Below, one piece after another: positions 37,165-63,937 of a stretch of DNA of 64,000 nt. The notes beneath the pieces were generated by a model. The model worked only from the letters and a program-made list of their open reading frames with translations. It had not been told where the DNA came from and did no database searches. Made by a program: the position numbers and the translations under genes. Origin of the DNA: a bacterium (GTDB taxonomy: Bacteria; Patescibacteriota; Microgenomatia; Levybacterales; UBA12049). How positions within the stretch are numbered: position 1 is the first letter of the stretch; the number at the start of each line of letters is the position of its first letter. The stretch is from assembly GCA_021813145.1 (NCBI GenBank), contig JAKALS010000002.1, forward strand, positions 35,595 to 99,594, in the 5' to 3' direction.

Positions 37165-37225
37165 AGAATATAATTAAGATAAAAAGCCAATATAACTAAA
37201 GACCAGATAATAAAGATAAAAGCAG

Positions 37226-37978
37226 CTATTTTTTTTGCCATAGGAGCCAAAGTTTTCCCCTTACGAGAAAGGAATGAAGACTCATCATAATTGCAAAGAC
37301 CAATCCTTCCACTCCGTCGAGAAAGCCAAGTTTAAGTATAAAATTAAGCTTAAATTTCGCAAGAGGATATACAACTATTTGCCAGGGCTTAACGGTTACC
37401 CCTTTTTCATGAAGTTCCCGTGCCCTTAAGTCGGTATATCCGTTTATTTCTCTTAAAAATTCCTCTATTGTAGGATGCGGGTAATGATAAAGAAAATTTT
37501 TTAAATTTCCCTTACCCCCTTCCATATTCCATACTTCATGAACTTTACCGCTCCACTTTCCCTTATTTTTTCTTCCGAGCCTTAATAGCCTTATGTTTCC
37601 GGTTTCTCCATGCTTTAAATTTTTTCCCCAAATAACATCTTCCCTTTTTATATAAAACCCGTTCTCTTTTATGTTTTTGTCCTCCAAAAGATCCTGAATC
37701 TCTCCTTTTAAAGAATTACTTAATCTCTCATCCGCATCTATAAACAGTACCCAGTCATTTCTTGATTTTGTAAGTCCGAAATTTCTTTGGGAGGAAAAAT
37801 CATTTTCAAGTCTTCTTTGAAAAACTTTAACTCTGGGGCCATAGTTTCTTACCACCTCAAGTGTCCTGTCTGTAGAAAAATCATCCACTATTAGTATCTC
37901 ATCGCACCACGAAACACTATCAAGGCAATCCACAATATTGTTTTCTTCGTTTTTTGTAAGAATAACTGCGCTTATCAT
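37226..37978 (-). CDS. Glycosyltransferase family 2
   Basis: ISAVILTKNEE, VDDFSTDRT and DADE (DxD) motifs. Confidence 0.8.
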   Translation of the reverse strand: MISAVILTKNEENNIVDCLDSVSWCDEILIVDDFSTDRTLEVVRNYGPRVKVFQRRLENDFSSQRNFGLTKSRNDWVLFIDADERLSNSLKGEIQDLLEDKNIKENGFYIKREDVIWGKNLKHGETGNIRLLRLGRKNKGKWSGKVHEVWNMEGGKGNLKNFLYHYPHPTIEEFLREINGYTDLRARELHEKGVTVKPWQIVVYPLAKFKLNFILKLGFLDGVEGLVFAIMMSLHSFLVRGKLWLLWQKK

Positions 37979-41249: not shown

Positions 41250-41251
41250 AA

Positions 41252-42517: not shown

Positions 42518-42534
42518 TAAATTCTGCCCTCTGT

Positions 42535-43749: not shown

Positions 43750-44468
43750 ATAATCCTCATCTTTATCACACAAAATAGGGAATTTAAGAGTTCTTTCGTA
43801 TTTACATTAGACTTACCGTACACTCTGTAATTCCATGTTATCGGAACTTCTCCTATCGAATAACCTTTAAGATATATTTTATATGCACTTTCCGAAAGAG
43901 TTATAAAACCTTTTGAATACATCCTTGTTTTTGTTAGATAATTGACCGAGCGCCGGCTGTAAAGTCTAAACCCGCTCGTATGGTCGCTTAAATGAATTCC
44001 CAGCCAATAGTATAAAAATCTGTTTATCATTCTACTCATTATTGTTCTGTCTGGAGCAATATTTATTATTTTTCCTCCGGGCAGATACCTGGATCCTATT
44101 ACAAGATCAAATTTTTTTTCCTTAATTTTTTCCATAAATCTTTTCATTTCTTTGGGATCGTGTGCCAAATCCGAATCCATCTCGAAAACATAGTTTATTT
44201 CTCTATCTTTTAAAGCCTCTTTAAAACCTTCTATTACCGCACTTCCCCTCCCGCCTTTTTTAAATCTTGATATAAGCATTGTATTTCTTTTCCCTTTAAG
44301 TATGGCCTTGAGTTTTTTATTTTCTTTAGGCAAAGAATCGTCTACTATAATTATTTTTGCCGAAGGAAACAGTTTTCTTATACCCTTCATCAAGATAGAT
44401 ATATTCTTTACCTCGTTATACGAAGGAATCACTATTGCAAAATTATTTTTCATAAATAGTAACTGCAA
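43746..44468 (-). CDS. GT2 polyprenol-phosphate sugar synthase (dolichol-P-mannose synthase-like)
   Basis: [21 protein letters not shown] and DSDLAHDP are typical of DPM1/GtrB-like enzymes. Confidence 0.7.
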
Positions 44469-47007: not shown

Positions 47008-47054
47008 TAAAAACTTGTTGAAATTATAGCATTTTCTGTTTTAAAATACATTAA

Positions 47055-48896: not shown

Positions 48897-48914
48897 CTTT
48901 ATGGCTCTTATAAA

Positions 48915-50651
48915 ATGGTTTTTGTAAACATTATCGCTTCCCTTATTTTAGGAGCAGGGCTTTTTGTCTACCGCTTTGTTTATCCTAAGAAAAAAATAAA
49001 TGTATTCGCACTTCTGTTGCTTATTCTGATTCTACCCGTTATAAGCATTACCAGAACGGGAGCATATCAATCGGGAGATTTTGATATTCATATTTACCGC
49101 ACAATGGCCTTTTACGGCTCTTTAAGCGAAGGGCACTTTATGCCTTCCTGGGCGGAAAATTTAAATGCCACATACGGATATCCGTTATTTATTTTCAACT
49201 ATGTTCTTCCTTATTACATTATTTCCTTATTCCATTTTATTGGGCTTAGTTATATTTCAAGCATGAAGCTATTTCTGGCATTAAGTCTTTATCTTTCAGG
49301 AATATTTATGTATATAATGGCAAAAGAAAAATTTAAAGATAATCTATCCGCCTTTACTTCCGCAATATTTTATACCTTTGTTCCCTATCATCTTATATCA
49401 GTACACTTCAAGATTACCATCGGGGAAGTACTGTCTTTTACGATTATTCCCGTTCTTTTTATATTTATTAACCGCTTATTAAAAAATAAAGATAAATTTT
49501 CCCTCATTCTTAGCGGATTTTTCTTAGGACTCTTGGGCCTAAGCCATATTTTTATTGCTATTATTATGGTCCCTATCCTTTTTGTTTATATTCTCTTCTA
49601 TGTTAAGCCCAAAACCGGCATCCTCTATTTTCTCTCAATCTTTGGAATAGGTGCGCTTATTACCTTTTATCAGTGGCTTCCTCCTATTCTTTATAACAAA
49701 TATCTTTTTATACATAAGTATCCTATTGATACCTCTGCTCTTTATTACCCGACGATAAAGGATTTATTGTATGCTCCTTGGAGATTCGGACTGCTTTTCC
49801 AGGGTCCTAAAGGGCAAATCTCCGACTTGATCGGTTATGCTCAATTATTCGTAATAGGTATCTTTGTATACCTACTTTTTAAGAAGAAAATCCCAAGGGT
49901 ATACACAAAAGAAATAATTGCCTGGCTTTTACTGTTTTTAGTGCTGATATTCTTTATTACTCCTTATTCAAAGATAATATGGATACACCTGCCGCTTATA
50001 AGTGATGCGGGAACCCAAAGATTACTTATACCTGTAGCCTTATCTACATCAATTCTTGCAGGCTTTCTTACCTACCTTAATCGAAAAAGAATTTTTCCAA
50101 TAACTCTGCTTATACTTTTTGCAATATTTTCTACAATTCTTAATTGGGGACAAAGAACTGTAATTCCCCAGATAAATGACTCTGTTCTTTCAAAAAATTT
50201 GCCTTATAGCACTTCCCAGGGAGAAGGACACTTCTATGCAAACACCGGGTGGGCAAACCCCAATCATCCCTGGTTTTCGGTGATTCCCTTAAATCATTTG
50301 GAAATTCTAAAAGGTATCGCGAAGTTTACGGAACTAAAAAGAATATCCGTTGAACATGAGTATATTATTAATTCCGTTACGCCTATAAGCGTAAACGAAA
50401 ACACCTTATACTTTCCCGGTTGGTCGGCAACAGATAACAAAAAACCGTTAGGAATAAGGCCAGACAAAAACGGAGTTATAACTTTCACCCTGCCTAAAGG
50501 GAAAAATCTTGTTATACTAAGATATAACGATTTATATTGGTTTAGTATAAGTAAGATTGTTAGCGGAGGATTAATTCTAATAATTATTCTTTTTTCAGGG
50601 TTTTACCTAACTAAGAAGATTTTATACCCCAAAGTTTTAAGTAAACATTAA
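48915..50651 (+). CDS. Polytopic membrane protein, YfhO/GT-C-like
   Basis: 578 aa with many TM helices and a C-terminal extracytoplasmic domain. The call rests on context. Confidence 0.3.
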   Translation: MVFVNIIASLILGAGLFVYRFVYPKKKINVFALLLLILILPVISITRTGAYQSGDFDIHIYRTMAFYGSLSEGHFMPSWAENLNATYGYPLFIFNYVLPYYIISLFHFIGLSYISSMKLFLALSLYLSGIFMYIMAKEKFKDNLSAFTSAIFYTFVPYHLISVHFKITIGEVLSFTIIPVLFIFINRLLKNKDKFSLILSGFFLGLLGLSHIFIAIIMVPILFVYILFYVKPKTGILYFLSIFGIGALITFYQWLPPILYNKYLFIHKYPIDTSALYYPTIKDLLYAPWRFGLLFQGPKGQISDLIGYAQLFVIGIFVYLLFKKKIPRVYTKEIIAWLLLFLVLIFFITPYSKIIWIHLPLISDAGTQRLLIPVALSTSILAGFLTYLNRKRIFPITLLILFAIFSTILNWGQRTVIPQINDSVLSKNLPYSTSQGEGHFYANTGWANPNHPWFSVIPLNHLEILKGIAKFTELKRISVEHEYIINSVTPISVNENTLYFPGWSATDNKKPLGIRPDKNGVITFTLPKGKNLVILRYNDLYWFSISKIVSGGLILIIILFSGFYLTKKILYPKVLSKH

Positions 50652-51681
50652 CCAAATTTTCCCAGGTTTGATTTTTAACCCAATTATACGCGTCATTAAT
50701 TTCCAGTTCGCTGTTTTTATTTAAAACTTTAATTAATTTTTCCGCAATTTCTTCTCCGTTTTTTGCAATAATTATATCTTTTGCAAAAGGCGCCATTTGC
50801 AAATAATCTCTCTTAATTGCATTGTTATATTCTGCAATAACTAACTTTTTTGCCGCCATTGCTTCCAGTATCCCTAGGTATCTGGAAACAAATACATAAT
50901 TTGCAGAATTGATATATTTTTCAACATTATTTATAAAACCTTTAAATTCTACGTTAAGATCGTTTTCTTTTACGTACTTTTTAGCAGCATTTTCGAGGCT
51001 ACCTTCACCTAGAACTGTTAGCTTTAAATCCTTTCCTTTATTTCTTAATATACTTAATGCTTTCAAGTACTCTAATATTCCTGTTTCTTCTTCCAGTCTC
51101 CCGACAAAGACAGCCTCGTTTTTTGATTTTTCGCCCTTAAATTCATTTAAGTCTACCGCCCCGTATGTTACAAATGCAGGTTTTGTTCCATACCATTTTT
51201 TTAAAAAATCCCCTACGCATATATTTCCGTTGGAAAGTTTTTCAGCCAGCTTATGCATGTAAATCGCCTTTCTTCCCGGAATATTATTGCCTTCATATCC
51301 ATGGAAAGTAGTAAATATTTTTTTTCGAGGATATAAAAATCTAAAAAGCAAATACCAAAAGAATACGTCATGGCAATGCACTATATCTGCTTCTTTTATT
51401 AATTCACGTTTGCCCCAAAGCTCTTTCCATATCCTAAACTTCTTCCAACGGTTGTCTTTACCCGCTTCTATCTTAACCGAAGCTATCCCGAATACCTTTC
51501 CCGTGGCTTTAGCGCTTGAAGAATTTGAGTGCTTATCTAAACTATGAGTTTTTTCAAAATTTTCGGAAATAACCGTTACCCGATAACCATTTTCTGCTAA
51601 AATTTTTCCAATTTCTAAAACATGCCTCTCTACTCCCCCAATTTCCGGATAAAATCTCCTCGCTAAAAATAAAACCTTCAT
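50611..51681 (-). CDS. Glycosyltransferase family 4 (GT-B)
   Basis: MKVLFLARRFYPEIGGVERHV N-terminus. Confidence 0.7.
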   Translation of the reverse strand: MKVLFLARRFYPEIGGVERHVLEIGKILAENGYRVTVISENFEKTHSLDKHSNSSSAKATGKVFGIASVKIEAGKDNRWKKFRIWKELWGKRELIKEADIVHCHDVFFWYLLFRFLYPRKKIFTTFHGYEGNNIPGRKAIYMHKLAEKLSNGNICVGDFLKKWYGTKPAFVTYGAVDLNEFKGEKSKNEAVFVGRLEEETGILEYLKALSILRNKGKDLKLTVLGEGSLENAAKKYVKENDLNVEFKGFINNVEKYINSANYVFVSRYLGILEAMAAKKLVIAEYNNAIKRDYLQMAPFAKDIIIAKNGEEIAEKLIKVLNKNSELEINDAYNWVKNQTWENLVNVYLKLWGIKSS

Positions 51682-51763: not shown

Positions 51764-52756
51764 TTACTTATTTGTGGATTGTTTGACAAAATACCTCTTC
51801 CAGCCGAAGGAAATCACCAGGTAAACAAGAAGGTCTATAAGCCAGAACCACTTGCAGAAGATGCTTGCGGAGTCTACTACAAACCACCAGACACCCTGCC
51901 CCAGGCAGCCTTTATTAATAAGAATAAATATTATGTAGGCCAGAATCGGAATTACCAGCCCCCATACCAGCTTTCTTTTTATATACTTCTTTCCTATCCC
52001 CTTGTTAAACACAAAGTACAAGTAAAGTATAAGTACAATGATTTCCCCTAAAATAATAGGCCACCAGATACACTGTCCGCATGCGCTTACCTTAACCTCT
52101 TCGTTGGTTGACTTGCCCAGTACCTCTTTTTTTGGGGCGGGAGTCGGCGAAACTGCAACTCCTAGGACTTCCTGCCCTCCCCCTATTCCCGTAACGGTTA
52201 CAGGGCCTGCAGGGTCTCCGGGCATACAGCCGTTAACCGCTTTTACCCAGAAAAAATACTGGTTAACCGCAAGACCCGAAATGGTATAGCTTGTAACGTT
52301 GCCCGTATCGGGAACTCCCCATTTTTGAGTATCGGGATTGTCGGAATAAGATATCTGAAACGTTGTAAAAGGCCCCTGCGGGGGGATCCAGGAAAGGGTT
52401 ACCTCCCCCGGCCCCGGCCCTGCAACTGCAACTAAGCTAATCGGTGTACCTACCGGTTTTGTATCGGAACATGTAGACGAAGAGCTTCCCCCTCCTCCTC
52501 CCCCTCCGCCATTATTATTGTTTCCGTTGGGGGACGTAGTAGGAGAAGGTGTAGAAGAAGGATTAGGGTTATTAGCTACCGAACAGGGGTTACCGGATGA
52601 ATTAACAGAATTAATATTCACGCAATTAGAAACAACCGTTCCGCTGAATGCGCTACCCGTATTTACCTCCTGCGCGTACACAGAAAACATGCCGGCCATA
52701 AGGAAAAAGCCGATAATCAAAATAAACCCTAATAAAAATTTATTTAGTTTTTTCAT
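51764..52756 (-). CDS. Secreted/membrane protein: signal peptide, poly-Asn/Gly linker, FN3-like domain, two EVLG motifs, C-terminal multi-TM region
   Basis: Seen in sequence. NNNNGGGGGGGGSSSS linker. FN3-like block is about 65% identical to the 56897..58117 protein. Motifs GQEVLGV and KKEVLGK. Confidence 0.6.
   Translation of the reverse strand: MKKLNKFLLGFILIIGFFLMAGMFSVYAQEVNTGSAFSGTVVSNCVNINSVNSSGNPCSVANNPNPSSTPSPTTSPNGNNNNGGGGGGGGSSSSTCSDTKPVGTPISLVAVAGPGPGEVTLSWIPPQGPFTTFQISYSDNPDTQKWGVPDTGNVTSYTISGLAVNQYFFWVKAVNGCMPGDPAGPVTVTGIGGGQEVLGVAVSPTPAPKKEVLGKSTNEEVKVSACGQCIWWPIILGEIIVLILYLYFVFNKGIGKKYIKRKLVWGLVIPILAYIIFILINKGCLGQGVWWFVVDSASIFCKWFWLIDLLVYLVISFGWKRYFVKQSTNK
52130..52510. repeat. 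Paralogous DNA segment (poly-Gly/FN3 module), copy 1; copy 2 at about 57000-57400
   Basis: Roughly 85% nucleotide identity by eye across about 110 bp (compare 52215-52325 with 57092-57200). Confidence 0.5.
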
Positions 52757-54933
52757 AGAAGAAAGATTTTTAACGCCTTCATTCTTTCCTCAAGGGAAAT
52801 TCTTTTTCCGAATATTGTCACAAACTTATCTTTTTGCCTGAAGCTCTTTAAAGCTATATATGCCATTATTACCGTAATCAAAGCATACAAAGGTCCGTAA
52901 TCGTTACCGGCTGTACCATTTTTAATTGCCGTAGGATAATGAGCTCCCAATACTTCGGATTTAGGATTATTAGGAGTTTGGAAAATAACGGAGTTACTTA
53001 CAAATCCTCCTCCCAAAACCGTAAAGTAAGAATCTCCAAATGCCGTTACTGTTGCGTCATTCGGCCCCACATTTCCATACGCAAAGGCCCGAGCAGTGTA
53101 TATTCCCGAAGGGGTATTGTCCGACAAAACAAGACCCGTTGAGACCTTAACCCCCTGCCCTGCAGGAATATTTCCCAGGTTGTATCCTGCTCCTCCCGCT
53201 GGAACACCGTTTCTCATTAAATAAAGCATCAGTTTTGCGTTATAAACAGTTCCCGTTCCCGTATTTTTTACATTAATAAAGAAGGTAACCGTATCACCGG
53301 GCTTAACATAACTTCCCGTGTTATTAGTGTTTTCCACGGAAAGCATTCCTCCAGATTCCATAGTCGAAGTCGTAGTAGAGGTCACCGTATTGGTATTGGT
53401 ATTTGTATTTGTATTTGTATTGCTTTGGATGCTTGGAAAATTGCTCGCTCCGCCTATATCTCCGTTCCAGTCTCCGAAAATATTAATAAATCCGAAAAAT
53501 CCTACGGAGTTTATAAAGGTGCTGTTTATAAAATTTATTAGAGATATAACACTATATGCATTGCCTGTAGTTATATAACCGCCACCCGAAAGATTATTTT
53601 CTCCCGTATTTGCAAACGAGGAAATATTATTGTTTATTACGGCATTATTATTAATATTAGTATTGGCCGAACAGGAGGCACAATTACTCGTATTCGGACC
53701 GAGGCTATAAAATACAAGAGTCGCTCCTCCCGACTGGGGATCCAAAGCTCCCCACCCTACAAAATTACCGTTCCAGTTGCCGTAATCGTTAATATACAAA
53801 ACTTTAGCATTTACCCCCACAAGATTTGTATTTACAAGATTTATTGTATTTATATCACTTGTAGAATTTCCTGTATTAAAGGTGGCGCTGCCCGAAGCCG
53901 TATTTTGTCCCGTATTTGCACCGGAATTTAGATTATTATTGACATCTGCATTGTTGTTTGTATTAAGATTGACTCCGCAAGTGGAACTTGAACAGTTTGT
54001 TGATGAATTCAAGTCGGGAAGAATTATATTTCCGTTCAGTTTCCCAAAAAGGTTTATTGTAATTACATGAATTTCGGAATTAACAACGGTAAAATTAACC
54101 TTATTAAGAAGCGACACCACCGAGTATGCATTTCCCGTATTAATAACTGCCGAATCTGTTGCCCCATTCACCTGATTGCTTCCCGTATTTGCAAAAGACA
54201 CAAGGTCATTGGAAAGATATGAATAGTTATTAATCGTTGTGGCAGAAATATTAATTGTGGGTTCATTTGGATAGGATTGAACGGCGTTAGCCGCAAGAGT
54301 AAAAGGATCGGAAAGGTTAATATCTCCGTTTTGTGTTACAAAAATATTTATTGTCTGGTAAACAACCTGTGAGTTAACGTTTGTACTATTTACCGTATTA
54401 TCCGCCGAAATTACGGAAGCGGCATCCCCCGTGTTAACAGCAGTGTTTGATGAAACAGTTGAACCGTTATTCGTAGCAGCCGAACCCGTTGCATCAACAG
54501 TATTGTCTCCCGTTATAGCCGAGGATGATGCGGAATTTGTAACATCCGCCGAGTTTGAAGCATTAAGTATTGTATCAACAGGAGAAGGAGTGGGTGTAGG
54601 CGAAGTGCTTGGATCGGGTGTTGTACTAGGATCGGGTGCTGGAGAAGACGTTGTATTAACTGTATCTGTGGTAACCGTAGTGCCCGATGGCGAAGGAGAA
54701 GGGCTTGGGCTTGAACTTGGGTCAGGTGTAGAACTTGGAGCGGGAGTTGAACCTACCGAATTATTTCCGGTATTTGTGATAGTCGTTGAAGTATTATCGA
54801 CCGTAGTAGGGCTGGAAGAAGGACTCGGAGAAGGAGATGCATCATCGGCAAAAGCAGGAGCGGGCACAGAATATAGAAGCACTATTGTTAATGCTAAAAA
54901 TACTGCGAAAATTTTTTTTATTTTTAATAACAT
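52753..54933 (-). CDS. Large secreted Pro/Thr/Ser- and Asn-rich surface protein with C-terminal SEVLGA motif + hydrophobic helix + basic segment
   Basis: Signal peptide, SPSPSP...TPTPSP linker, Asn/Thr-rich repeats, a (NT)n tract, and C-terminal ...KSEVLGAHYPTAIKNGTAGNDYGPLYALITVIMAYIALKSFRQKDK... Confidence 0.6.
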   Translation of the reverse strand: MLLKIKKIFAVFLALTIVLLYSVPAPAFADDASPSPSPSSSPTTVDNTSTTITNTGNNSVGSTPAPSSTPDPSSSPSPSPSPSGTTVTTDTVNTTSSPAPDPSTTPDPSTSPTPTPSPVDTILNASNSADVTNSASSSAITGDNTVDATGSAATNNGSTVSSNTAVNTGDAASVISADNTVNSTNVNSQVVYQTINIFVTQNGDINLSDPFTLAANAVQSYPNEPTINISATTINNYSYLSNDLVSFANTGSNQVNGATDSAVINTGNAYSVVSLLNKVNFTVVNSEIHVITINLFGKLNGNIILPDLNSSTNCSSSTCGVNLNTNNNADVNNNLNSGANTGQNTASGSATFNTGNSTSDINTINLVNTNLVGVNAKVLYINDYGNWNGNFVGWGALDPQSGGATLVFYSLGPNTSNCASCSANTNINNNAVINNNISSFANTGENNLSGGGYITTGNAYSVISLINFINSTFINSVGFFGFINIFGDWNGDIGGASNFPSIQSNTNTNTNTNTNTVTSTTTSTMESGGMLSVENTNNTGSYVKPGDTVTFFINVKNTGTGTVYNAKLMLYLMRNGVPAGGAGYNLGNIPAGQGVKVSTGLVLSDNTPSGIYTARAFAYGNVGPNDATVTAFGDSYFTVLGGGFVSNSVIFQTPNNPKSEVLGAHYPTAIKNGTAGNDYGPLYALITVIMAYIALKSFRQKDKFVTIFGKRISLEERMKALKIFLL
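53387..53422. repeat. In-frame hexanucleotide tandem repeat (GTATTK)x6 encoding (Asn-Thr)n
   Basis: Seen in sequence: gtattggtattggtatttgtatttgtatttgtattg. Confidence 0.7.
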
Positions 54934-55061
54934 AACTGCTCCTTTTTCCTGTTGTTTTCGTACCTATTTTATGCTTAACGCGGTAGGCACTTTATAGGCT
55001 TAATCCTATATTTTTTCTGTATTAAATATCACAGCGATAAGTTCAATTAATTCTTCCGTCC

Positions 55062-55094
55062 CGGGGAGAGCCCTGAAACATTTTGCTCTCCCCG
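55062..55094. other. GC-rich 10-bp inverted repeat CGGGGAGAGC-(13 nt)-GCTCTCCCCG downstream of the 55117..55623 gene
   Basis: Seen in sequence. A strong stem in an AT-rich background. No adjacent U-tract. Confidence 0.3.
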
Positions 55095-55116
55095 CGGACC
55101 GGAAAAGAATTACCTA

Positions 55117-55623
55117 TTAAGGAGTAGGCACGTTGAACATATTGGTGTTAACAACATTGCTTACAACCGAATAGGATGTAGCGGAACCGGTATGAACTGG
55201 AGACTGATAAATAGACGCTCCATAGTGTCCGGTTACCCCGTTATAGCCCGTATTGGACGATGTATTAACATTATTGGACACTGTACCCGAATTTGACAGG
55301 TCAAAATCCAAGAAGTGTACACCGCTGAGGCTTAAACTGCCGGTCGATTGATTCCAGTTAAGCTGGGTTTGAACATTGGCGCTCGAAAGAGCATTGCCGG
55401 ACGTAAGAGAACTGTTCGTTACTCCTCCGTCTTCGCCCCATGCAGTTAAACCGTTATATCCAGTATTAGAGCTTGTATTTACAGAATTACTGACCGTTCC
55501 TGAATTTGAAATATTGACGAAAGCTTTTGGACCTTCATACCACGCAAAAGCCGGAACCGATGTTGCTAAAAGTAATGCTGCTGCTGCTCCTGTTGCTGCT
55601 AATTTTTTGAACATTTTATTCAC
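55117..55623 (-). CDS. Small secreted protein with an internal tandem duplication
   Basis: Signal peptide ending ...VPAFA. About 24-aa block SNSGTVSN(S/N)VNTSSNTGYNG(L/V)T occurs twice. Confidence 0.55.
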   Translation of the reverse strand: MNKMFKKLAATGAAAALLLATSVPAFAWYEGPKAFVNISNSGTVSNSVNTSSNTGYNGLTAWGEDGGVTNSSLTSGNALSSANVQTQLNWNQSTGSLSLSGVHFLDFDLSNSGTVSNNVNTSSNTGYNGVTGHYGASIYQSPVHTGSATSYSVVSNVVNTNMFNVPTP

Positions 55624-55750
55624 CTCCTTCCCTACGTTGGATAGTTTGATATAGTTAATACTATATTCATTATCCGAGTGGAATTAATACTAAATTTATT
55701 TCATGATTAAAAAATAAAAGAATTGTAAGAAGTCTGTAAGAGACCGAAGA

Positions 55751-56158
55751 CTAAGCGTTACTCAAGGTAAAGAAGCTTAAAACTTTATCGAAGAAACCAA
55801 GCACCATGCTTTTGAATGCCGATACTATATTAAAATTTCTTGTTTCCGAAACGGTTATAGTTTTATTAGAAGGGATAGGAAGCTGAGGAGTAACTGTGGC
55901 CGAAGGAGTCGCTATTATTTTTGAACTTGTCGAACTTCCGTTTGATTTTACTTCTACTTTATAGGTCCCCGGACCGGTAGCATCAAGAGTTTTTGTTACC
56001 CTGTTTGCCGTAGTTTCTATATGGGTTTGCACATTCCCGCTTCCCTGTATTTCGGTTTGAACACTGGACCGAGCAGCCGAATTGCCGTTTGTTACTTCGG
56101 CCGAGGAAATTTGGGGGAATAAAAATACCATCACTGCCGTAAGTAAAAGATATTTCAT
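55751..56158 (-). CDS. Small secreted protein (signal peptide) with C-terminal MVLGFF segment
   Basis: Signal peptide FLFPQISSA. No homology recognised. Confidence 0.45.
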   Translation of the reverse strand: MKYLLLTAVMVFLFPQISSAEVTNGNSAARSSVQTEIQGSGNVQTHIETTANRVTKTLDATGPGTYKVEVKSNGSSTSSKIIATPSATVTPQLPIPSNKTITVSETRNFNIVSAFKSMVLGFFDKVLSFFTLSNA

Positions 56159-56304
56159 AAGCTCCTTTTACTTCTAAACAATAAATTTGTCAAGTTTTAC
56201 AAAAGGACCGAACCCAAAAATAAAACCGAAAGCACAATAATAATTATCAACATAGAAAACAGTTTCATCTTTCTTTTTTACTCTTATTAAAAACTTTTGT
56301 CAAA

Positions 56305-56922
56305 TTACTTTTGGGGAATTGCAGTAACAATAAGACGTTTTTCATCGTAAAATCCGGTACATGTATAAAGGGTAAGGGTGTCTGTTCTTGTCGGAGCAAT
56401 TACATCTGTCTGGTTTGGGTAGACTGCTGTAATTTTATTCACTTTATATCTGTACCATTTGTTTTTTGTAAAAATATAAATAATATCTCCTGTTTTTACG
56501 TCTTTAAGGTTGTAGAAAAGCCCCTGTCTTGCATGGGCAAAAATTACAGTGTTCCCCGCAGTCCCGGGATGGCCGCTCCCCAGCCCGTAAGAAGCCGTAT
56601 TATCCGAAAGTTCCCAATATCCGTTAACTACTTTTGCGTCAACTACGGGAAGGTCGATTTCTACCGAAGGAATTAAAATTCTTACCGGATCGCTTTGAAC
56701 AGACTGCTCTGCCAAAAGCTTCGGAGAAATTTTAATGGGATTAGTCGTATTGCTTTGGCTAGTAGTGTAATAAGAAGACCCAACAAGAATTGCAAGCGCT
56801 GCAATAAGAAAAACGAGACTTAAAATTTTGTATTTTAAGGGGTTTTGCTGTTTGGTTCTTTTCCCGGATTTTTTAGGAGTTTTTTTAACTTTTTTCTTAG
56901 GCATTCTTTTTAAATAAGGCAA
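56305..56922 (-). CDS. Sortase (membrane-anchored transpeptidase)
   Basis: Basic N-terminus plus a TM helix. Catalytic His region TVIFAHARQG. Catalytic Cys/Arg in DTLTLYTCTGFYDEKRLIV (TLxTC...R). Overlaps the upstream 56897..58117 gene by 26 nt. Confidence 0.8.
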   Translation of the reverse strand: MPYLKRMPKKKVKKTPKKSGKRTKQQNPLKYKILSLVFLIAALAILVGSSYYTTSQSNTTNPIKISPKLLAEQSVQSDPVRILIPSVEIDLPVVDAKVVNGYWELSDNTASYGLGSGHPGTAGNTVIFAHARQGLFYNLKDVKTGDIIYIFTKNKWYRYKVNKITAVYPNQTDVIAPTRTDTLTLYTCTGFYDEKRLIVTAIPQK

Positions 56923-58117
56923 ATCCCGTAATGCTTAAGATTAAAGAAGCGAATATCTGCAACGCAAAAAGATTATTTGTATCCCCTGCCGTATAGGAAA
57001 GGCCTAAAACACCGGGCCCAGTCGAAGCTCCCAGGACCGCCTGGGTAGGGCCTCCTGTTCCCCCCACTGTTACAGGTCCAACAGCATCTCCGGGCATACA
57101 TCCGTTAACCGCATTTACCCAGAAATAATATTTAGTGACCGAAAGACCCGAAATTGTATAGCTTGTTACATTTCCCGTACTTGATACTCCCCATTTCTTT
57201 GTTCCTGGATCATCGGAATAAGATATGGAATAATCTGTTACAGGCCCCGAAGGAGCCGCCCATGTTAATGTTACCTGACCTGCGCCCGGCCCCGATACTG
57301 CCGTTACATTAGTAGGGGCTCCGGGTTTTTGATCTGAGCATACAGGAGGATTCGAGCTTCCTCCCCCGCCTCCCCCATTACTTCCCCCACCTCCGGGTGT
57401 AGAAGTAGGAACGGGCGTAGGCGTTGAAGTTGGTATGGGTGAAGTTGTTTCCTCGGGCTGGCAATCCTGGTTAGTTTCACAATTACTCTCTCCCACACCG
57501 GGGAATTTCACGCATTGGTAATCATTATTGCAAGAATCGTAATAAGCTTCCGTCTGGCAATCCTGATCGACCTCACAATTACTTTGTTTTATACCCTCAT
57601 GCTTTATGCATTGCCTATCTTCATTGCATGTATAGTAGTAATGAGGTGTCGGAGTTGAAGTCGGTGAGCAGGTCGGGGAAGAACTCGGGCTAGGATTCGG
57701 ACATTCTACCCAGAACTCCTTGTGTTTAACATTTTGCTCGTTACTGCCTTCCCAATTAAGGCGGTAGTGTCCGTTAGACAATGAATAATCTTGTGTCTTA
57801 TAGAACCCGGATGGACTTGTGTTATATGTTCCTGACTCAACTTGTGACCCGTTTCCGGTAGGCTGCCAGGAAAGGATTTCCCATGTGCCTGATTGAGAAG
57901 GATCAGCAAAATAAAAGGCTATATAGAAAGTGCAAACGTGCGGATCGTTATCGGGGAGATCAATTCCTGCGCTAACATCATGAATTTTAACCGTCCCATT
58001 ATTTCCATTATCAGCTTTTGCGATTAGAGGATTTAAAGCCAGAATAAATAATGCCAAAGTAAAAAAAGCAGTTAGTAGAATCAATCCCTGTGCTTTCATA
58101 AAATTCTTGATTTTCAT
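56897..58117 (-). CDS. Secreted surface protein: Cys-rich tandem repeats, poly-Gly linker, FN3-like domain, AVLGA/GVLGL motifs, TM helix, KKNA tail
   Basis: Signal peptide. Two roughly 32-aa CxxxxQC...NCExxQDC repeats. GGGGSNGGGGGGSS linker. C-terminal ...TQAVLGASTGPGVLGLSYTAGDTNNLFALQIFASLILSITGFALFKKNA. Confidence 0.65.
   Translation of the reverse strand: MKIKNFMKAQGLILLTAFFTLALFILALNPLIAKADNGNNGTVKIHDVSAGIDLPDNDPHVCTFYIAFYFADPSQSGTWEILSWQPTGNGSQVESGTYNTSPSGFYKTQDYSLSNGHYRLNWEGSNEQNVKHKEFWVECPNPSPSSSPTCSPTSTPTPHYYYTCNEDRQCIKHEGIKQSNCEVDQDCQTEAYYDSCNNDYQCVKFPGVGESNCETNQDCQPEETTSPIPTSTPTPVPTSTPGGGGSNGGGGGGSSNPPVCSDQKPGAPTNVTAVSGPGAGQVTLTWAAPSGPVTDYSISYSDDPGTKKWGVSSTGNVTSYTISGLSVTKYYFWVNAVNGCMPGDAVGPVTVGGTGGPTQAVLGASTGPGVLGLSYTAGDTNNLFALQIFASLILSITGFALFKKNA
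57450..57660. repeat. Tandem duplication of about 95 bp (Cys-rich module) inside the 56897..58117 gene
   Basis: ctggcaatcctg recurs at 57458 and 57553. The encoded repeats are YYTCNEDRQC... and YYDSCNNDYQC... Confidence 0.55.
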
Positions 58118-58147
58118 ATTTAGGGGACAGTTAGAGGCAGCTAAGTT

Positions 58148-61100
58148 CTACTGCCTTCTTAGATACTTTCTTAATAAAATTCCGCTTAGTAATACAAATA
58201 GAAGTACTACAAATGCCCAGCCTATCGAAGCCATGCTAATACCCTTTGTCAGCAATGCAGGTTTTTGCGAAGGAGTTGGCGTAGATGAAGGTTTAGCACT
58301 TTCTGTTGCCGCACCCAAAACTTCCTGTCCGGGTGCAGTTTCTTGAAGAGTCGGTTCTGCATTTTCGGAAGTATTGGCTCCTAAAACTCCCTGTATTGTA
58401 TTTGCAGCCAAAACCGATGGACCTGCCGAAGGCGCTCCTCCGCCTCCTGATGAGCCTCCGTCGGATCTCCCGTCTCCGGGAAGTCCAAAAATATAATAAG
58501 TAGAAAAAGCTGTTTCGTTTCCAACCGCTTCGGGAGATCCCGCCGAAATAGTTCTGTAATAATAATCCTGATTTACGGTTAAACCGTTTACTGTTACAGA
58601 ATGACTAGTAACTTTATTAGTATCTTCTACCGTTGAATAGGCATAACCGTAATTCGGAGCGCTTCCCAATGTGGGATGGGAAACTGTATCGTAGACTACC
58701 CTGCTTGTTGCAGGGAAATTAGTTGCCCATGTTATTAATACCGAGTTATCTCCTGTACGTACAATCTTTTGGTCGGAAATAATAGGAGGAACATTGTAAA
58801 CTCCACTAAAGGTTGTGCTGTTGCCGGCATTATCGTATGCAATTGCATTTATCGTAAGGTCGCGGTCAACAACAATGGGCGAAGAATATAAAACTTTTGT
58901 TGCGGAAGTTGCAGGATTTGTTCCGTCGGTTGTATAGTAGACATCTTTTACTCCGCTTAAATTATCGGTAGCAATTAGAGCAACATTTGTCGGATTATCC
59001 GGCTGATCTCCAGGCAACGGATTCGCAGTCAAGGCGGGAGCAGTTGCATCATATACATAATGCACAGGAGCGCTCCATGCCCCGACATTACCTGCGTTGT
59101 CAACGGCCCTTACATAAATCGTAACTCCGCCTTGTTCATTTAATCCGGGAACATGTCCTCTAGAGGTTACATTTCCGGCTACATCACGGCATCCGCCATT
59201 TGGTAAGTCCGAGCATGTACTCCCGGAAAAAGTGTGATGGTCATCGTAGACGTATCCTACTTGATACTTAGCAATTCCGCTGGTATCCGTAACCGCTGTC
59301 CAATTGGCAGTAATTGGTATTGAATTAAAGTAGTCTCCATTACTTGGAGACGTGATTGTAGGCGCTGATGGAGCTGTCCAATCAACTGTATATGTACAAC
59401 TGTTATTAATACCCTCGCTGCCACCAAACCAAGCTGATTTATTTCCTGCTTTATCAACTGCCCTTACTTGAACTCCATAGGTTCCTTGCACAGGCACCGT
59501 CCACCAGGAAGCATTGAAGTATGGAGTCGTAAAAGTTCGAATAGGACCAACGCTTCCATCAGCATTAAAAGAGACATATTCATAATGATCGAAATCCGCC
59601 TCGGTATTAGCATTCCAATACACATCAAAATTCCTTGCAGATGTTATTCCTCCACAAGCAACATCTTTATTATTTACAGTATCTTTGAAATAAATTCCTG
59701 TTGGAACAGCCGGAGCCGTGCTATCTATATTTACCGCCCATGGACCTGACCAATTACTGCAGTTTCCAACACTATCACAAGCTCTAACTTGCCAATAATA
59801 CAAATGGTCACTGGAGCCGGAAGCATCAATTTGAGACGCTGTTCCCGTATTTTTATTATATATAGGTGAAACGAAACCATTACCAGCACCTACCGCAGAA
59901 CTATAAGAAGACTGATAGTAGTAAGTAACGGGTAAGCTGGGATCAGTGACATCCGACCAATCCAAAATCAAACCTCCCGGTTTTACAAAAGCGCCGTTTG
60001 CGGGACTTACTAGTGTCGGAACATTTGGAGCAGTTTTATCAATTGTAAATTTATATTCTGTCGAATTCCCAGCCTTGTCTACTACTACCATTCGATAACT
60101 ATCATCGGCTAGCCAAAAAAGACCAAACCACTCACCTGTATAAATCTTAAATGGACTGGATTCACCTTCTCTATATAATTCAGTTTGTAAATAATTAGTG
60201 TCAATTGCATGAACATTAATGTTTGTACTGCCGTTATATAGGGCTTTTGGAGCAACGCCGTCTATAGTGGCTGTTGGAGCTGTTCGGTCGACATAGATTG
60301 TGCGAATAGCATTTACACTCCAATTCAAAGCCATATCTTGGGCACCTACTTGGACATAGTATTTTCCATCCGACAAATTACTAGGCAAGTGCACTTTGCA
60401 AATTCCGGAATCACTCGTACCACTTTCATTTGAATTGTTATAACATGTGGCAACCCAATGGTTTGAATGCGAAGAATCAGTATCATAAAAGCTAACATTG
60501 ACGCTTTTTAGCGCTACATTATCACTTGCTGTGTAACCAACATCGAAGTTACTGTTAACATATGCATTGTTGGCTGGTGTGGGCAAAGTAAAGGACACCG
60601 TGGGTTTGGTGGTATCTGGTCCATTACAGAGTCCATTAAGATCCGGAGTAGTCAACCAGGTTGAGAAATCAACATTAGTACTAACCTTATCTCCAGAACC
60701 AGGCCCCACCGGTCCTGGACCCGTTGCGCTTCCCCACCAATTGCAGGTTGCTTTGACTAATGGGTTAGAGTTGTCATTCTGAACACCGATTGGATTTCCG
60801 GTAATTTGATTACGGTTAACAACAACCTGATCAGATATAGTATTCACAGGTACTAGAATTCCCGCATTCGCCATATTTGTAATTATATTGTTGAGCACTT
60901 GAATATTTTGGTTTAATCCAGTACCGAAGTCATTAGATAGACGAACCCCTCTATAGCCATTATCAAGATTGTTATTTTGAATAGTAACGCCATTATTACC
61001 AAGTCCTACGAAAATTGTCGAACTTTGATTAAAACCCGATCCTGTGTTGGTGGAGGTATTTTCACTTACATTTACGGTAGTGTTATTAACTAGAACTACG

Positions 61101-63937
61101 AAACTCCCATCATTATGGCTAGTGTTATTTGTGATCGTCAGATTTGTTGAATTGTCAATATTTATTGCTGCATAGTCTCCACCATCTCCATGGTCATGAC
61201 CAAAGAAGCTATTGTCCTTAATGGTTAAATCATTACTTACGGCCGAGGCCATCCAGATACCCGCATCTTGTTTATAAACATCGCCCGATTCATCAAAAAA
61301 TTCATTTTTATCTACTGTCATTCCGCTGGATACATTTGTACTTGGCCCCTGAACATGTAAACCCTCATATAGGTTTTTAAAAATTGTGTTTGTAATATGA
61401 ACCCCTGAAGTTGCCACCCCAGCTGCAGCATTTATCCCCCAGGTTTGATTGCCGGGTGTCCCTGCGCCTTGAATATAAAATCCATCGATTGTTACATTAT
61501 TTGCTTTAATTGAAATAGCCGAATTTCCAACTCCACCGCTTTGTGCCGGAATTATTGACTCAGAAGAACTATTTCGTCCCCTTGCATCTATGCCTTCCTG
61601 AGCACCATTAAGAGTAAGCGATTTGTTAATAGTTATCGATTCCGTATAAGTTCCGGGTGCTACATCAACTGTTCCATCTGCAGAAACTCCATTTACACCA
61701 TCCTGAATTTTTGAAAACGCATTGATGCCGTAATATCGGTAAGTTCCATCAGAAGCCAGTACTTCCGGATAAGTATTAGAACCGGAACTAAGCGTGCTCC
61801 AGCTACCATCAACCGAGACGGTCGATGTGGCAAGCGAAAGCGGTTTGCCATTGAAAGTATTACCGGTTAACGTTACTGTCGATGCGCTTGGATTAGATTC
61901 GAGTCTAAGAGCCATGGAATCTGTACCGAGCTTGTGGTCAGTAAGCCCAGTGACAGTGTTGCCCGTTATGACCGCACCGGGAGTGTTGCTTTCAAGCCCA
62001 ATGGCATGTGCCCAAAGACCTTTAAGAGTTCCAATTGTATTATTAGCAATATTAAGGCCGGTTGTCTTGTGGTTAACAAGAACACCATATGCACCTGCTC
62101 CTCCTCCGTAAGACGACCCTCCAATCCAGCCTGCTGTTGAGGCATAAATGTTATTCATGGTATTATCTGAAATAGCCACATTTGATATCGTATTTGAACC
62201 GGTGGAATTACCGAGATAAACTCCTTTCGCACTACTTCCGGCGGATCCTGCATGCAACATACCGGTATTGCCAATATCAGAAATTGTATTGCCATTAATA
62301 GTTATATTAGTTACATCTGCAGAATTACTTATAATGCCAATAGCCTGGGCCGAACCACTTTTGAGTGATGTGCCAATATCATGAATTGTGTTATTTGTGA
62401 TGTGAAGATTACTATGATCGGTTGAAATGATACCAGATCCTGAATCCTGATTCTTAATATTCATGCCGTCTACCGTCACATTATCGCTTGAAATGGTGAT
62501 CTGACCGGTAAGATTAGCTCCGCTTACTCCCTGAAGAGTAATATTTTTTGAAATATTTGGATTTTCGGCATAATTTCCCGCGGCTACATTTACTGTCCCA
62601 CCGGAAGAAACAGCATTGATTCCATCTTGAATAGTAGCAAAGGCGTTAATCCCAAAAATCTTTCCTCCGCCCAAATCTGCCCCTGTAATATCTCCTGCCC
62701 AACTTGCATCAACATAAATTTCACTCATTCCCACAAATGCAATTGCATCGGCTGCAAGGTTACCGCTTGTTGAAGCCTCAACGGATAATGTAATTGTGTT
62801 GCCGGAAACTAAATTATATCTGCCTGAGTTTGGAAACCAACCCGACCAGGTTCCATTTGTCATGTCTGTAACACTTGCATTAGCGGGTTCCTTTTGATTT
62901 ACTCCCGTCAGATCAAACCCGATAATATTAGAGGAAGTGTAATGCGCATTTGTTGCATGATCATCCCAAATAACCCAACTTGGTAAAATAGCATATACTC
63001 CCGAATCACCGTTAAAAGTCCATGTTGCAACTTTTCCTGTTTGAGACGGGGATACCCAATGATGGTCTCCATCATAACCGGCACTTGTATAAACATTCCA
63101 TCCGTTATCACTATAACCCGCTCCCCCGTCATCTACTACGATAAAGATTGTAAAGTGGTTAAGTCCCGTTATTGTTACAACATTTCCCGTTGTCTGGTTT
63201 GCCTGGTTAACCCCTGAGGTTTTTAATCCGTCTACCGTTTCCGATGACTTTATTCCGAGGGTTTTACCTTGGGCGGTATCGGGTACGGGTAACGTTAGAT
63301 TATACTGGAATGTTCCGTCCGTCATATCGGATGATATGTTATAAGCGGTATCCGAAAGAGAACCCGTTGCTTTTTGTTGATCTGCAGTTAATTTAACTTC
63401 TGTAATTGTTAATTTTCCGGGGTTATCTGGTAGTTTTGTAAATGTTACCGTAACTTTGCTGTTTTGGGGAGCTTTATAAACCTGGTTTAAAGAAACTGTA
63501 CCTGTTGTTGTTTGTGAGCCATCGGGATTTTCCTGCCATTGAGGAGAATTTAAAGTAGCGCTTGGCTGAACATCTTTTGAAGGAGGAGAGAGATTGCCTG
63601 CGGGCGTAGGCGATGGGGTTATTGTATCAACCGGAGAAGCTATTGGTGTTGACTCAGGAGTAGCGGTAGGAACAGGTGTGTCGGTAGGCACGGGTGTAGA
63701 AATATCGGACGGACTTGCAGACGGTAAAACGGTAGGAGCCGGTGTTTGGCTAACTGCAGACGAAGAAGAAGGTGCGGGTGTCGGAGCGTCTGTCGGAGAA
63801 GGGCTTGCCGAAACTTGAGCAGTTTCTTGGGCGAATGCTTTTTGAGTGTTTATAAGCGCTAGAGGACTAAGCGCTTGGACAAGGAGTGCGTATAGAGCAA
63901 TCAGGGAAATGAGCTTTTTCCCAATTTTTTTGAGCAT
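58148..63937 (-). CDS. Giant (1929 aa) secreted surface protein: signal peptide, PT-rich linker, right-handed beta-helix (pectate-lyase-like) repeats, FN3/Ig-like domains, C-terminal GVLGA...QEVLGA motifs + TM helix + RKYLRRQ tail
   Basis: Recurrent beta-helix motifs ITNNTIHDIG, INGNTISDIGN and IANNTIGTL. C-terminal ...QEVLGAATESAKPSSTPTPSQKPALLTKGISMASIGWAFVVLLFVLLSGILLRKYLRRQ. Confidence 0.7.
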   Translation of the reverse strand: MLKKIGKKLISLIALYALLVQALSPLALINTQKAFAQETAQVSASPSPTDAPTPAPSSSSAVSQTPAPTVLPSASPSDISTPVPTDTPVPTATPESTPIASPVDTITPSPTPAGNLSPPSKDVQPSATLNSPQWQENPDGSQTTTGTVSLNQVYKAPQNSKVTVTFTKLPDNPGKLTITEVKLTADQQKATGSLSDTAYNISSDMTDGTFQYNLTLPVPDTAQGKTLGIKSSETVDGLKTSGVNQANQTTGNVVTITGLNHFTIFIVVDDGGAGYSDNGWNVYTSAGYDGDHHWVSPSQTGKVATWTFNGDSGVYAILPSWVIWDDHATNAHYTSSNIIGFDLTGVNQKEPANASVTDMTNGTWSGWFPNSGRYNLVSGNTITLSVEASTSGNLAADAIAFVGMSEIYVDASWAGDITGADLGGGKIFGINAFATIQDGINAVSSGGTVNVAAGNYAENPNISKNITLQGVSGANLTGQITISSDNVTVDGMNIKNQDSGSGIISTDHSNLHITNNTIHDIGTSLKSGSAQAIGIISNSADVTNITINGNTISDIGNTGMLHAGSAGSSAKGVYLGNSTGSNTISNVAISDNTMNNIYASTAGWIGGSSYGGGAGAYGVLVNHKTTGLNIANNTIGTLKGLWAHAIGLESNTPGAVITGNTVTGLTDHKLGTDSMALRLESNPSASTVTLTGNTFNGKPLSLATSTVSVDGSWSTLSSGSNTYPEVLASDGTYRYYGINAFSKIQDGVNGVSADGTVDVAPGTYTESITINKSLTLNGAQEGIDARGRNSSSESIIPAQSGGVGNSAISIKANNVTIDGFYIQGAGTPGNQTWGINAAAGVATSGVHITNTIFKNLYEGLHVQGPSTNVSSGMTVDKNEFFDESGDVYKQDAGIWMASAVSNDLTIKDNSFFGHDHGDGGDYAAINIDNSTNLTITNNTSHNDGSFVVLVNNTTVNVSENTSTNTGSGFNQSSTIFVGLGNNGVTIQNNNLDNGYRGVRLSNDFGTGLNQNIQVLNNIITNMANAGILVPVNTISDQVVVNRNQITGNPIGVQNDNSNPLVKATCNWWGSATGPGPVGPGSGDKVSTNVDFSTWLTTPDLNGLCNGPDTTKPTVSFTLPTPANNAYVNSNFDVGYTASDNVALKSVNVSFYDTDSSHSNHWVATCYNNSNESGTSDSGICKVHLPSNLSDGKYYVQVGAQDMALNWSVNAIRTIYVDRTAPTATIDGVAPKALYNGSTNINVHAIDTNYLQTELYREGESSPFKIYTGEWFGLFWLADDSYRMVVVDKAGNSTEYKFTIDKTAPNVPTLVSPANGAFVKPGGLILDWSDVTDPSLPVTYYYQSSYSSAVGAGNGFVSPIYNKNTGTASQIDASGSSDHLYYWQVRACDSVGNCSNWSGPWAVNIDSTAPAVPTGIYFKDTVNNKDVACGGITSARNFDVYWNANTEADFDHYEYVSFNADGSVGPIRTFTTPYFNASWWTVPVQGTYGVQVRAVDKAGNKSAWFGGSEGINNSCTYTVDWTAPSAPTITSPSNGDYFNSIPITANWTAVTDTSGIAKYQVGYVYDDHHTFSGSTCSDLPNGGCRDVAGNVTSRGHVPGLNEQGGVTIYVRAVDNAGNVGAWSAPVHYVYDATAPALTANPLPGDQPDNPTNVALIATDNLSGVKDVYYTTDGTNPATSATKVLYSSPIVVDRDLTINAIAYDNAGNSTTFSGVYNVPPIISDQKIVRTGDNSVLITWATNFPATSRVVYDTVSHPTLGSAPNYGYAYSTVEDTNKVTSHSVTVNGLTVNQDYYYRTISAGSPEAVGNETAFSTYYIFGLPGDGRSDGGSSGGGGAPSAGPSVLAANTIQGVLGANTSENAEPTLQETAPGQEVLGAATESAKPSSTPTPSQKPALLTKGISMASIGWAFVVLLFVLLSGILLRKYLRRQ

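Follow-up and report, generated by a model that had tools for sequence, protein, structure and literature searches.

The region described here lies at positions 51764-63937 of a 64,000-nucleotide stretch of contig JAKALS010000002.1 (assembly GCA_021813145.1, a bacterium of the Patescibacteriota), which we refer to as the window. According to the list of open reading frames (ORFs) it comprises seven genes, all on the minus strand, with a sortase gene in their midst. In the order of transcription they encode a giant protein of 1929 amino acids, a 406-amino-acid protein with an fn3 domain, the sortase, two secreted proteins of 135 and 168 amino acids, a 726-amino-acid repeat protein and a 330-amino-acid protein with an fn3 domain and a multi-pass region. 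The original prediction had described these genes as a surface-protein cluster whose members share a VLG motif near the C-terminus, and all its ORFs and motif positions were reproduced. The sortase and the features of its predicted substrate are the following.

56305..56904, minus strand: sortase, family PF04203, 199 amino acids from the conserved ATG at 56904
56533-56535, minus strand: sortase residue His130 (numbering of the 205-amino-acid form)
56359-56361, minus strand: sortase residue Cys188 (same numbering)
56335-56337, minus strand: sortase residue Arg196 (same numbering)
56897..58117, minus strand: predicted cognate sortase substrate, 406 amino acids, fn3 domain (E 6.9e-11)
57002..57037, minus strand: the two VLG boxes of the substrate, AVLGASTGPGVLG, with VLG361-363 at 57029-57037 and VLG370-372 at 57002-57010
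56984..57001, minus strand: predicted recognition core L373-S-Y-T-A-G378, from a 41-sequence logo and distant clusters
56912-56971, minus strand: hydrophobic helix LFALQIFASLILSITGFALF of 20 amino acids, read from the sequence
56900-56911, minus strand: basic tail KKNA, the ending ...FKKNA being kept in homologues

An alternative TTG start upstream, at 56922, would extend the sortase to 205 amino acids. The protein shows the layout of a sortase, with a basic N-terminal segment, one transmembrane (TM) helix, a linker of about 25 amino acids and the catalytic domain at about residues 64-199 of the 199-amino-acid form. The Pfam model of the peptidase C60 family (PF04203) gave an E-value of 2.6e-24 and a score of 85.8 bits, well over its cut-off of 26.6, and TIGR01076 scored 55.3 bits against 39.35. 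His130, Cys188 (within TLxTC) and Arg196 were invariant in two alignments of 19 (A1) and 101 (A3) homologues, which bears out the His/Cys/Arg signature recognized in the original prediction. An earlier AlphaFold2 (AF2) model obtained from the 19-sequence alignment was unusable, with a predicted local distance difference test (pLDDT) score of 51. The model calculated from the 101-sequence alignment returned a mean pLDDT of 78, about 90 in the catalytic domain and 54-61 in the stretch before beta-1, and showed a helix at residues 22-46 and a beta-barrel. When this model was submitted to Foldseek, solved class C and class A sortases were retrieved (E about 1e-10, probability 1.00). Class C pilus sortases were the nearest by both Foldseek and phmmer with class A almost equal (E about 1e-10 to 1e-12), and the fold search did not discriminate between the two classes. 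The family match, the invariant triad, the model and the fold search agree in demonstrating that the enzyme is a sortase.

The class assignment was examined with the NCBIfam models. The class C model (NF033745) gave the best score, 55.8 bits against a cut-off of 160, and the values for SrtD (51 against 140), class E (NF033747, 49.9 against 160), class D (45.7 against 165), class F (38.6 against 166) and class GN (33.3 against 158) were likewise below threshold. Since no class cut-off of the matched models was reached, the enzyme is a member of an unclassified sortase clade, and at least 338 homologues were found in the protein collection.

The stop codon of the substrate gene overlaps the ATG of the sortase gene by 8 nucleotides, ATGCCTAA, as read from the sequence. 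The substrate ends in AVLGASTGPGVLG-LSYTAG-DTNN-LFALQIFASLILSITGFALF-KKNA, and a motif, a hydrophobic helix and a basic tail thus stand at the extreme C-terminus, as in an LPXTG-type signal. Of the five secreted neighbours, this protein is the only one with a complete signal; its core is contained in the peptide GPGVLGLSYTAGDTN, and TIQGVLGANTSE, PGQEVLGAATES, KSEVLGAHYPTA and LLTKGISMASIG are core-less peptides. The LPXTG_anchor model TIGR01167 scored 11.4 bits on the substrate (cut-off 15.9), in a local alignment that begins at G378, and from 13.3 up to the cut-off value of 15.9 on relatives. As this model was unable to fix the register of the core, the register was set from the conservation logo and the orthologues. 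No literal LPXTG, LAXTG or LPXTA was found near any C-terminal anchor of the window, as the original prediction had stated. The TAG(D/N) element that it had noticed in two proteins is indeed present in the 56897 and 52753 proteins (named here by their lower coordinate), and in the former it forms part of the core rather than a secondary element. The original prediction had missed that the VLG of the 56897 protein is fused to L-S-Y-T-A-G, a sequence that stands where orthologous clusters have LAxTG/LPxTG. Separately, an LAATG string is present at 55117-55140 in the predicted signal peptide of the 168-amino-acid protein (MNKMFKKLAATGAAAALLL...) and, given its location inside the signal peptide, is almost certainly there by chance.

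Related loci belong to Levybacteria, Gottesmanbacteria, Woesebacteria and other Microgenomates, which makes the source a Levybacteria-like CPR bacterium. The pairing of the two genes was surveyed at the loci of 79 family sortases, 32-100% identical to that of the window. A same-strand gene, usually overlapping the sortase gene, was found upstream of 68 of them and ended in an LPXTG-type core and a hydrophobic segment in 62 of the 68. Among these upstream genes a V/I-x-G box occurred at most 11 amino acids upstream of the core at 60 loci and a strict VLG at 46. The logo of 41 close-clade C-termini read G-P-x-V(35)-L(28)-G(38)-L(40)-S(37)-x-T(34)-[S23 G10 A7]-[G22 S15]-[E/D], which gives VLG-L-S-x-T-[S/G/A]-[G/S] as the signal of the close relatives; its conserved L, small residue, variable position and T mirror L-P-x-T-G. 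Of 25 distant-clade cases, 21 showed [LYF]AxTG or LGATG, and in 16 the VLG was separated from this core by 0 or 3 residues. The cores at the same position included LADTG, LAATG, LAFTG, YAETG, LGATG, FAPTG and LPGTG, and the signal took the form VLG(A-S/T-T)-[L/Y]AxTG; that of a Saccharimonadales locus was VLGASTSLPGTG, and proteins of cultivated Saccharibacteria carry VLGAST-LPGTG (L071). In a Woesebacteria-type clade VLG has decayed to IIG, IVG, ISG, IDG or VKG. Because this clade loses VL and keeps G-L-S-x-T, the core is the constant element and VLG an accessory one. These comparisons demonstrate the box-core-TM-tail architecture, the conserved gene pairing and the positional equivalence of the core to LAxTG/LPxTG.

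A phmmer search with the last 60 amino acids of the substrate against 1.84e9 representative proteins returned 29 genuine matches of 140-406 amino acids, all with a tandem VLGASTGPxVLG and ending in ...VLGASTGPxVLGLS[T/Y]TSG[E/D]...FKKNA. Three further matches (P0122, P0134, P0147), repeat proteins devoid of VLG, were discarded. Reverse look-ups from the substrate placed the gene directly upstream of a sortase in all 3 informative cases. When 16 paired substrates were aligned (A2), only a C-terminal cassette was conserved, consisting of NPGGPGDG(R/K)SDG, a Cys pair, QVLGASTGPxVLGLSTTSGE, the TM helix and FKKNA. As the passenger parts were unalignable, the C-terminal part behaves as a transferable sorting cassette on unrelated passengers.

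Further features of the paired substrates were recorded during the survey. Many of them (A2; L001, L006, L022, L061, L068) carry a Cys pair 10-20 amino acids upstream of the VLG box, in the form SSCP(E/S)CTQ(A/P)P or GC(G/S/A)xHDCSGN and preceded by (G)PGDG(R/K/L)SDG repeats; the window substrate has no Cys pair, and the giant protein has the PGDGRSDG part. Two Woesebacteria-type substrates, in L048 (ORF end about 9867) and L049 (about 9896), stop right after the core with ...PAILGLSATSSK and ...PAILGLSATSSE, respectively, so that their ORFs encode neither a hydrophobic helix nor a basic tail, which could be due to a frameshift or an assembly problem or be a true tail-less variant. A second sortase with its own upstream substrate was found in L015 (2578-3961), L048 (2647-3709), L016 (2593-4108) and L023 (5625-7267). 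In L015 and L048 this second enzyme belongs to the family, with about 36-39% identity to the window sortase, and in L016 and L023 the identity is only 26-29%. Among the signals at these loci are AVLGTASFAPTG, QVLGLAFTG and KSFLSSKTG, and the module of one substrate and one sortase appears to be duplicated within genomes.

The distribution of the VLG box was evaluated both in the window and beyond it. The cluster contains 9 VLG in 3,899 amino acids, 7 of which sit in the linker just before a membrane segment, versus 11 in 16,824 amino acids outside the cluster. Over 81 sequence sources the VLG density peaked at 2.47 per 1000 amino acids at 40-60 amino acids from the C-terminus and was about 0.2-1.0 beyond 100 amino acids. 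In 45 secreted, C-terminally anchored proteins of related loci that are not adjacent to a sortase, VLG reached 12.2 per 1000 amino acids in the 60 amino acids before the TM helix, at a distance of 12-57 amino acids from it, versus 0.15 in the rest of the ectodomain, an 80-fold difference (Fisher P 3e-27); at least half of the members carried it in 8 of the 13 families represented. The placement of VLG is thus non-random, and the view of the original prediction that a VLG-containing element is tied to C-terminal anchors was upheld. The element is also kept in orthologous clusters, whose lack of the motif the original prediction had named as grounds for abandoning it.

The C-terminal 400 amino acids of the giant protein returned 77 homologues from Patescibacteria (Roizman-, Gottesman-, Wolfe-, Kaiser-, Azambacteria and others). 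A C-terminal anchor was present in 51 of them, and 36 of these 51 showed a [V/I][L/I]G box at most 80 amino acids upstream of the helix. Three of the homologues read VLGAST(T)-LPKTG or -LPRTG, and two of these three are encoded directly upstream of a 198-amino-acid sortase; one such sortase, compared with that of the window, was 25% identical. The box itself has the form (Q/E)VLG, often VLGAST, within the cassette PGDG(R/K)SDG, Cys pair, VLGAST, core, TM helix and KK. Because it stands beside LPKTG/LPRTG at a 25%-identical sortase and occurs in many anchored proteins that lack a core, we do not take VLG for the specificity determinant of this sortase, and we read the box as a putative lineage-wide stalk or presentation element rather than a scissile or specificity motif.

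Known signals with a similar appearance were considered as well. An exosortase, archaeosortase or rhombosortase signal was rejected, VLG lying at a variable distance of 6-57 amino acids from the TM helix, and the models of these enzymes and signals gave no match in the seven cluster proteins and three C-termini scanned. A signal-peptidase site was also discarded, as the topology would be wrong for a C-terminal anchor. A possible link to VLGARR...TGD anchors of Clostridia gave 1 match at E 3.2 in a search with a synthetic query, a weak negative that leaves the link unsupported. Full-text literature searches with VLG-containing motif strings returned only unrelated papers, and no description of the VLG box was found in the searched literature.

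On the basis of these data, the two genes probably constitute a translationally coupled substrate-sortase pair, whose signal LSxT[S/G/A] is a variant of LAXTG/LPXTG placed behind a conserved VLG box. In the mechanism we propose, the 56897 protein would be exported by the Sec pathway and retained in the membrane through the helix and the KKNA tail at its C-terminus. The membrane-tethered sortase would recognize the core L-S-Y-T-A(G) behind the VLG box and, by analogy with the cleavage of LPXTG between Thr and Gly, cut after Thr376 with formation of a thioester on Cys188, and the substrate would finally be transferred to an amine of a peptidoglycan precursor. The cleavage site, the acceptor and any role of VLG are inferred.

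Several observations weigh against this interpretation. Within the close clade the conservation of VLG almost reaches that of the core, and this would be consistent with its direct recognition by the enzyme. The cleavage register is predicted from the conservation pattern and homology only, and the sub-threshold local TIGR01167 match starting from G378 would favour the register SYTAG. The neighbourhood survey was confined to 20 kb around each sortase. The giant could be a second substrate via a GISMAS segment close to its TM helix, and the 52753 family retains T-[A/G]-[G/S/R] 3-7 amino acids before the TM helix.

The original prediction had gone further and proposed xVLG(A) as a new sortase motif replacing LPXTG, with all five neighbours as substrates. 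Strong enrichment before C-terminal anchors, near-invariance in the close clade, conservation in the giant and 52753 families and the lack of a literal LPXTG near the anchors of the window speak for this idea. We nonetheless hold it to be very unlikely, as the gene directly upstream of the sortase itself encodes an LPXTG-type core and, in 62 of the 68 loci, such a core lies between VLG and the TM helix of the sortase-adjacent substrate. In addition, one clade keeps the core although its VLG has decayed, the distance of VLG from the TM helix ranges over 12-57 amino acids in proteins not adjacent to a sortase, and VLGAST occurs together with canonical LPKTG/LPRTG. Among the neighbours, the VLG of the 55751 protein is not conserved, the 51764 protein is polytopic, and the conserved cytoplasmic tail of the 52753 family would be discarded by sorting. 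A docking (exosite) element needed besides a relaxed core, with the giant and the 52753 protein also processed, would agree with the fixed register of VLG and core (gap 0 or 3), with the occurrence of VLG before the cores of two distant sortase subfamilies and with the presence close to the TM helix of GISMAS in the giant and T[AG]G in the 52753 family. There is also a possible precedent in Bacillus anthracis sortase B, for which the title of one paper announces substrate recognition beyond the pentapeptide (PMC11987632). Two spacings are, however, hard to square with a rigid subsite, the box is common to 25%-identical sortases and to many core-less proteins, and GISMAS is not conserved in the homologues of the giant, so that we judge a docking role unlikely. 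Taken more broadly, as an undescribed functional signal of Patescibacteria surface proteins that is either a shared docking element for sortases or a separate maturation or shedding site, with the giant and the 52753 protein again processed, the VLG box, (Q/E)VLG[A/x][S/T]T, merits somewhat more credit, and we mention this as a tentative possibility. In this view it would mark the stalk of most proteins with a C-terminal anchor, both with and without a following LPXTG-type core.

A minimal sortase-dependent pilus system, in which a class C-like polymerase would act on an upstream pilin, was also taken into account. Pilus-specific class C sortases (2xwg, 5k9a/6bwe) are nearest to the enzyme among both solved structures and sequences, the pairing of substrate and sortase recalls pilus islands, and a SpaA_2 domain is found in the paired substrate of other Patescibacteria. 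The class C model score is far from its cut-off (55.8 bits against 160), however, and class A sortases match almost equally. The passengers of the paired substrates are non-homologous, with no conserved Lys pilin motif in the 16 substrates of A2, and the window holds one sortase and one substrate with a full signal; a pilus is accordingly an improbable explanation. Finally, the clustering of VLG might be a compositional or chance artefact of low-complexity linkers, given that VLG occurs at a normal rate in the cytoplasmic enzymes of the window (11 in 16,824 amino acids) and that the 55751 instance is due to chance. The 80-fold enrichment inside one and the same set of proteins, distributed over 8 of 13 families, the fixed register to the core and the conservation of the box across sortases 32-100% identical to that of the window and across Patescibacteria make such an artefact exceedingly improbable.

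The substrate-sortase pair with a core behind a VLG box was compared with systems already described. LAXTG is the sorting signal of class E sortases. This class includes Streptomyces SrtE1/E2 and the actinobacterial housekeeping sortases (PMC5148588). As in class E, a small residue stands in for the Pro of LPXTG (Ser/Ala in this family, Ala in class E), some distant family substrates carry a literal LAxTG (LADTG, LAATG, LAFTG), and the signal is tripartite, with motif, TM helix and basic tail. Unlike class E, the window sortase scored 49.9 bits against 160 with the class model and matched the class E structure 5utt weakly (E 2.8e-4), Thr is followed by S, A or G instead of G, and a conserved upstream VLG box and a single dedicated substrate are present. 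The class C pilus sortases (A. oris SrtC1, 2xwg; C. diphtheriae SrtA, 5k9a) share with the window enzyme the best sequence and fold matches and an adjoining substrate gene, but its class C score lies far under the cut-off and its substrates have no conserved pilin domain or motif. With regard to class D, whose signal is LPNTA, the predicted scissile Thr-Ala bond is the same, whereas the class D models scored 45.7 bits (cut-off 165) and 51 bits (cut-off 140) and the residue after Thr follows the order S > G > A across the family. A dedicated sortase-substrate pair with a non-canonical signal is known from AbpA-SrtB of oral streptococci (PMC4974636), and extended recognition is indicated for B. 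anthracis SrtB by the title of PMC11987632. Like these, the present locus has one sortase beside one substrate with a distinctive C-terminal signal, and they offer a precedent for the involvement of residues outside the pentapeptide. Unlike them, the window sortase belongs to a different class, with no class B model among its matches, and its upstream element is common to core-less proteins.

A large part of the diversity of bacteria belongs to the Patescibacteria, or Candidate Phyla Radiation (CPR), which live attached to other cells and whose display of surface proteins has received very little study. In the literature on CPR/Patescibacteria sortases we found only mentions of the presence of sortase genes. 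From our analysis a sorting signal that can be tested emerges for a CPR sortase family that is widespread and unclassified; it reads VLG-LSxT[S/G/A]G and grades into VLGAST-LAxTG. The enzyme has one dedicated partner, encoded upstream of it, in which the passenger domain is exchanged freely. Such anchors escape annotation pipelines because the LPXTG_anchor model stays below threshold, and the signal could improve the prediction of CPR surface proteomes. For ligation chemistry, the sortase may also be of use through a changed specificity, with Ser at P3 and a relaxed P1'. Some novelty is left in the conserved VLG stalk element, for which the searched literature held no description.

The remaining genes of the cluster are the following.

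58148..63937, minus strand: giant surface protein of 1929 amino acids with beta-helix, Ig/fn3-like, CHB_HEX_C and Pur_ac_phosph_N-like domains (Pfam)
55751..56158, minus strand: secreted protein of 135 amino acids, directly downstream of the sortase in Levybacteria-type loci
55117..55623, minus strand: secreted repeat protein of 168 amino acids, with no VLG and no anchor, in the same gene row (ORF list)
52753..54933, minus strand: secreted repeat protein of 726 amino acids, VLG at 52945-52953 (18 amino acids before the TM helix) and TAG at 52906-52914
51764..52756, minus strand: protein of 330 amino acids with signal peptide, Gly/PT linker, fn3 domain (E 9.5e-10) and multi-pass membrane domain

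The C-terminal stalk of the giant protein comprises LPGDGRSDGG, VLG/VLA boxes (VLG at 58379-58387 and 58313-58321), a TM helix and RKYLRRQ. The start of this stalk cassette is common to sortase substrates, and the VLG boxes are kept in the homologues of L004, L005 and L006. The last box lies 29 amino acids from the helix with no conserved core between them. The weakly core-like GISMAS segment (58226-58243), which abuts the TM helix, fits the pattern G[LIV][SA]x[TA][SGA] (background 0.088 per 1000 amino acids); about 0.003 such matches are expected there by chance per protein, and the segment is not conserved in L004, L005 and L006. The 52753 protein shows a 31-amino-acid basic cytoplasmic tail after the TM helix, ending in MKALKIFLL. 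The 9 homologues keeping this C-terminus have (V/T)LG 10-25 amino acids before the TM helix, and the closest ones conserve a tail L..L+MFLL of 30-40 amino acids, which sorting would discard; no Leu, Tyr or hydrophobic P4 residue precedes T[AG]G in this family. The giant and the 52753 protein are most likely membrane-anchored surface proteins with a common stalk module.

The claim that all five neighbours share a signal did not hold for the two remaining VLG-containing proteins. The 51764 protein has VLG boxes at 52160-52168 and 52115-52123, and its fn3 module is paralogous to that of the substrate and 58% identical to the fn3-VLG segment of the L002 substrate. Its only full-length homologue, in L005, is without VLG, and the protein is a polytopic paralogue of the fn3-VLG module. 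The gene of the 55751 protein is syntenic in L001, L002, L006, L010, L011 and L083; its MVLGFF lies in a C-terminal amphipathic segment and is absent from all 6 homologues, and this VLG is a chance occurrence. The poly-Gly/PT linkers, said to precede the motif, in the 56897 and 51764 proteins mostly precede the fn3 domain instead. The 168-amino-acid protein gave no family match, and a similar-sized protein is encoded at the same position in L083. A motif TG(D/N)(A/S)x(A/S)xxxx(V/I)xNxxN... is repeated in the 726-amino-acid protein and, in looser form, in the 168-amino-acid protein. A single copy of the motif stands at the mature N-terminus in homologues of the 135-amino-acid protein and likewise in several sortase substrates of relatives (P0135, P0140, P0149-P0151). 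No Pfam or NCBIfam model matched the TG(D/N)(A/S)x(A/S) repeat motif.

As for the wider setting, the MurT and GatD homologues reported elsewhere in the window are real, at 18320-20370 (E 3.5e-81 and 5.3e-69, under the equivalog cut-offs), and a genuine sortase inside a surface-protein cluster of a monoderm-type, Levybacteria-like organism is supported. The promoter and terminator scan was uninformative, as its signal was not above the shuffled expectation. Positions 34355-51681 form a low-GC block (0.31-0.35 versus about 0.40 elsewhere) with a glycan or glycosylation cluster, encoding a Wzy_C O-antigen-ligase-like protein, GT2, two GT2-PMT_2 fusions, GT4/GT1, a Polysacc_synt flippase and several large polytopic proteins. 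As this block directly adjoins the Ser/Thr/Pro-rich surface-protein cluster, O-glycosylation of the stalks of the surface proteins is conceivable.

Other genes were observed near related sortases. In Gottesman/Woese-type loci a TKGDAN protein with a C-terminal TM helix, which we take to resemble SipW/archaeal-type signal peptidase I, is encoded a few kb from the sortase (L020 12767-13315, L021 2995-3555, L022 11540-12070, L036 11147-11725, L074 956-1627); it is not found near the window sortase. In loci of the same type a conserved pair, absent from the window cluster, follows the sortase (e.g. L026 10567-11850, L030 10814-11940, L035 10504-11724), consisting of a protein of about 310 amino acids ending in ...RR..R.GGRT-FAH.AFLGMI and an 86-amino-acid membrane protein with W-G-x-x-H-H-x-x-H-x-D-L-H. 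In other Patescibacteria a substrate-sortase pair lies beside a candidate diversity-generating retroelement (bAvd and RVT_1; L088 9059-10347), and in L086 (976-6957) another stands beside type IV pilus genes (T2SSE, T2SSF and N_methyl pilins).

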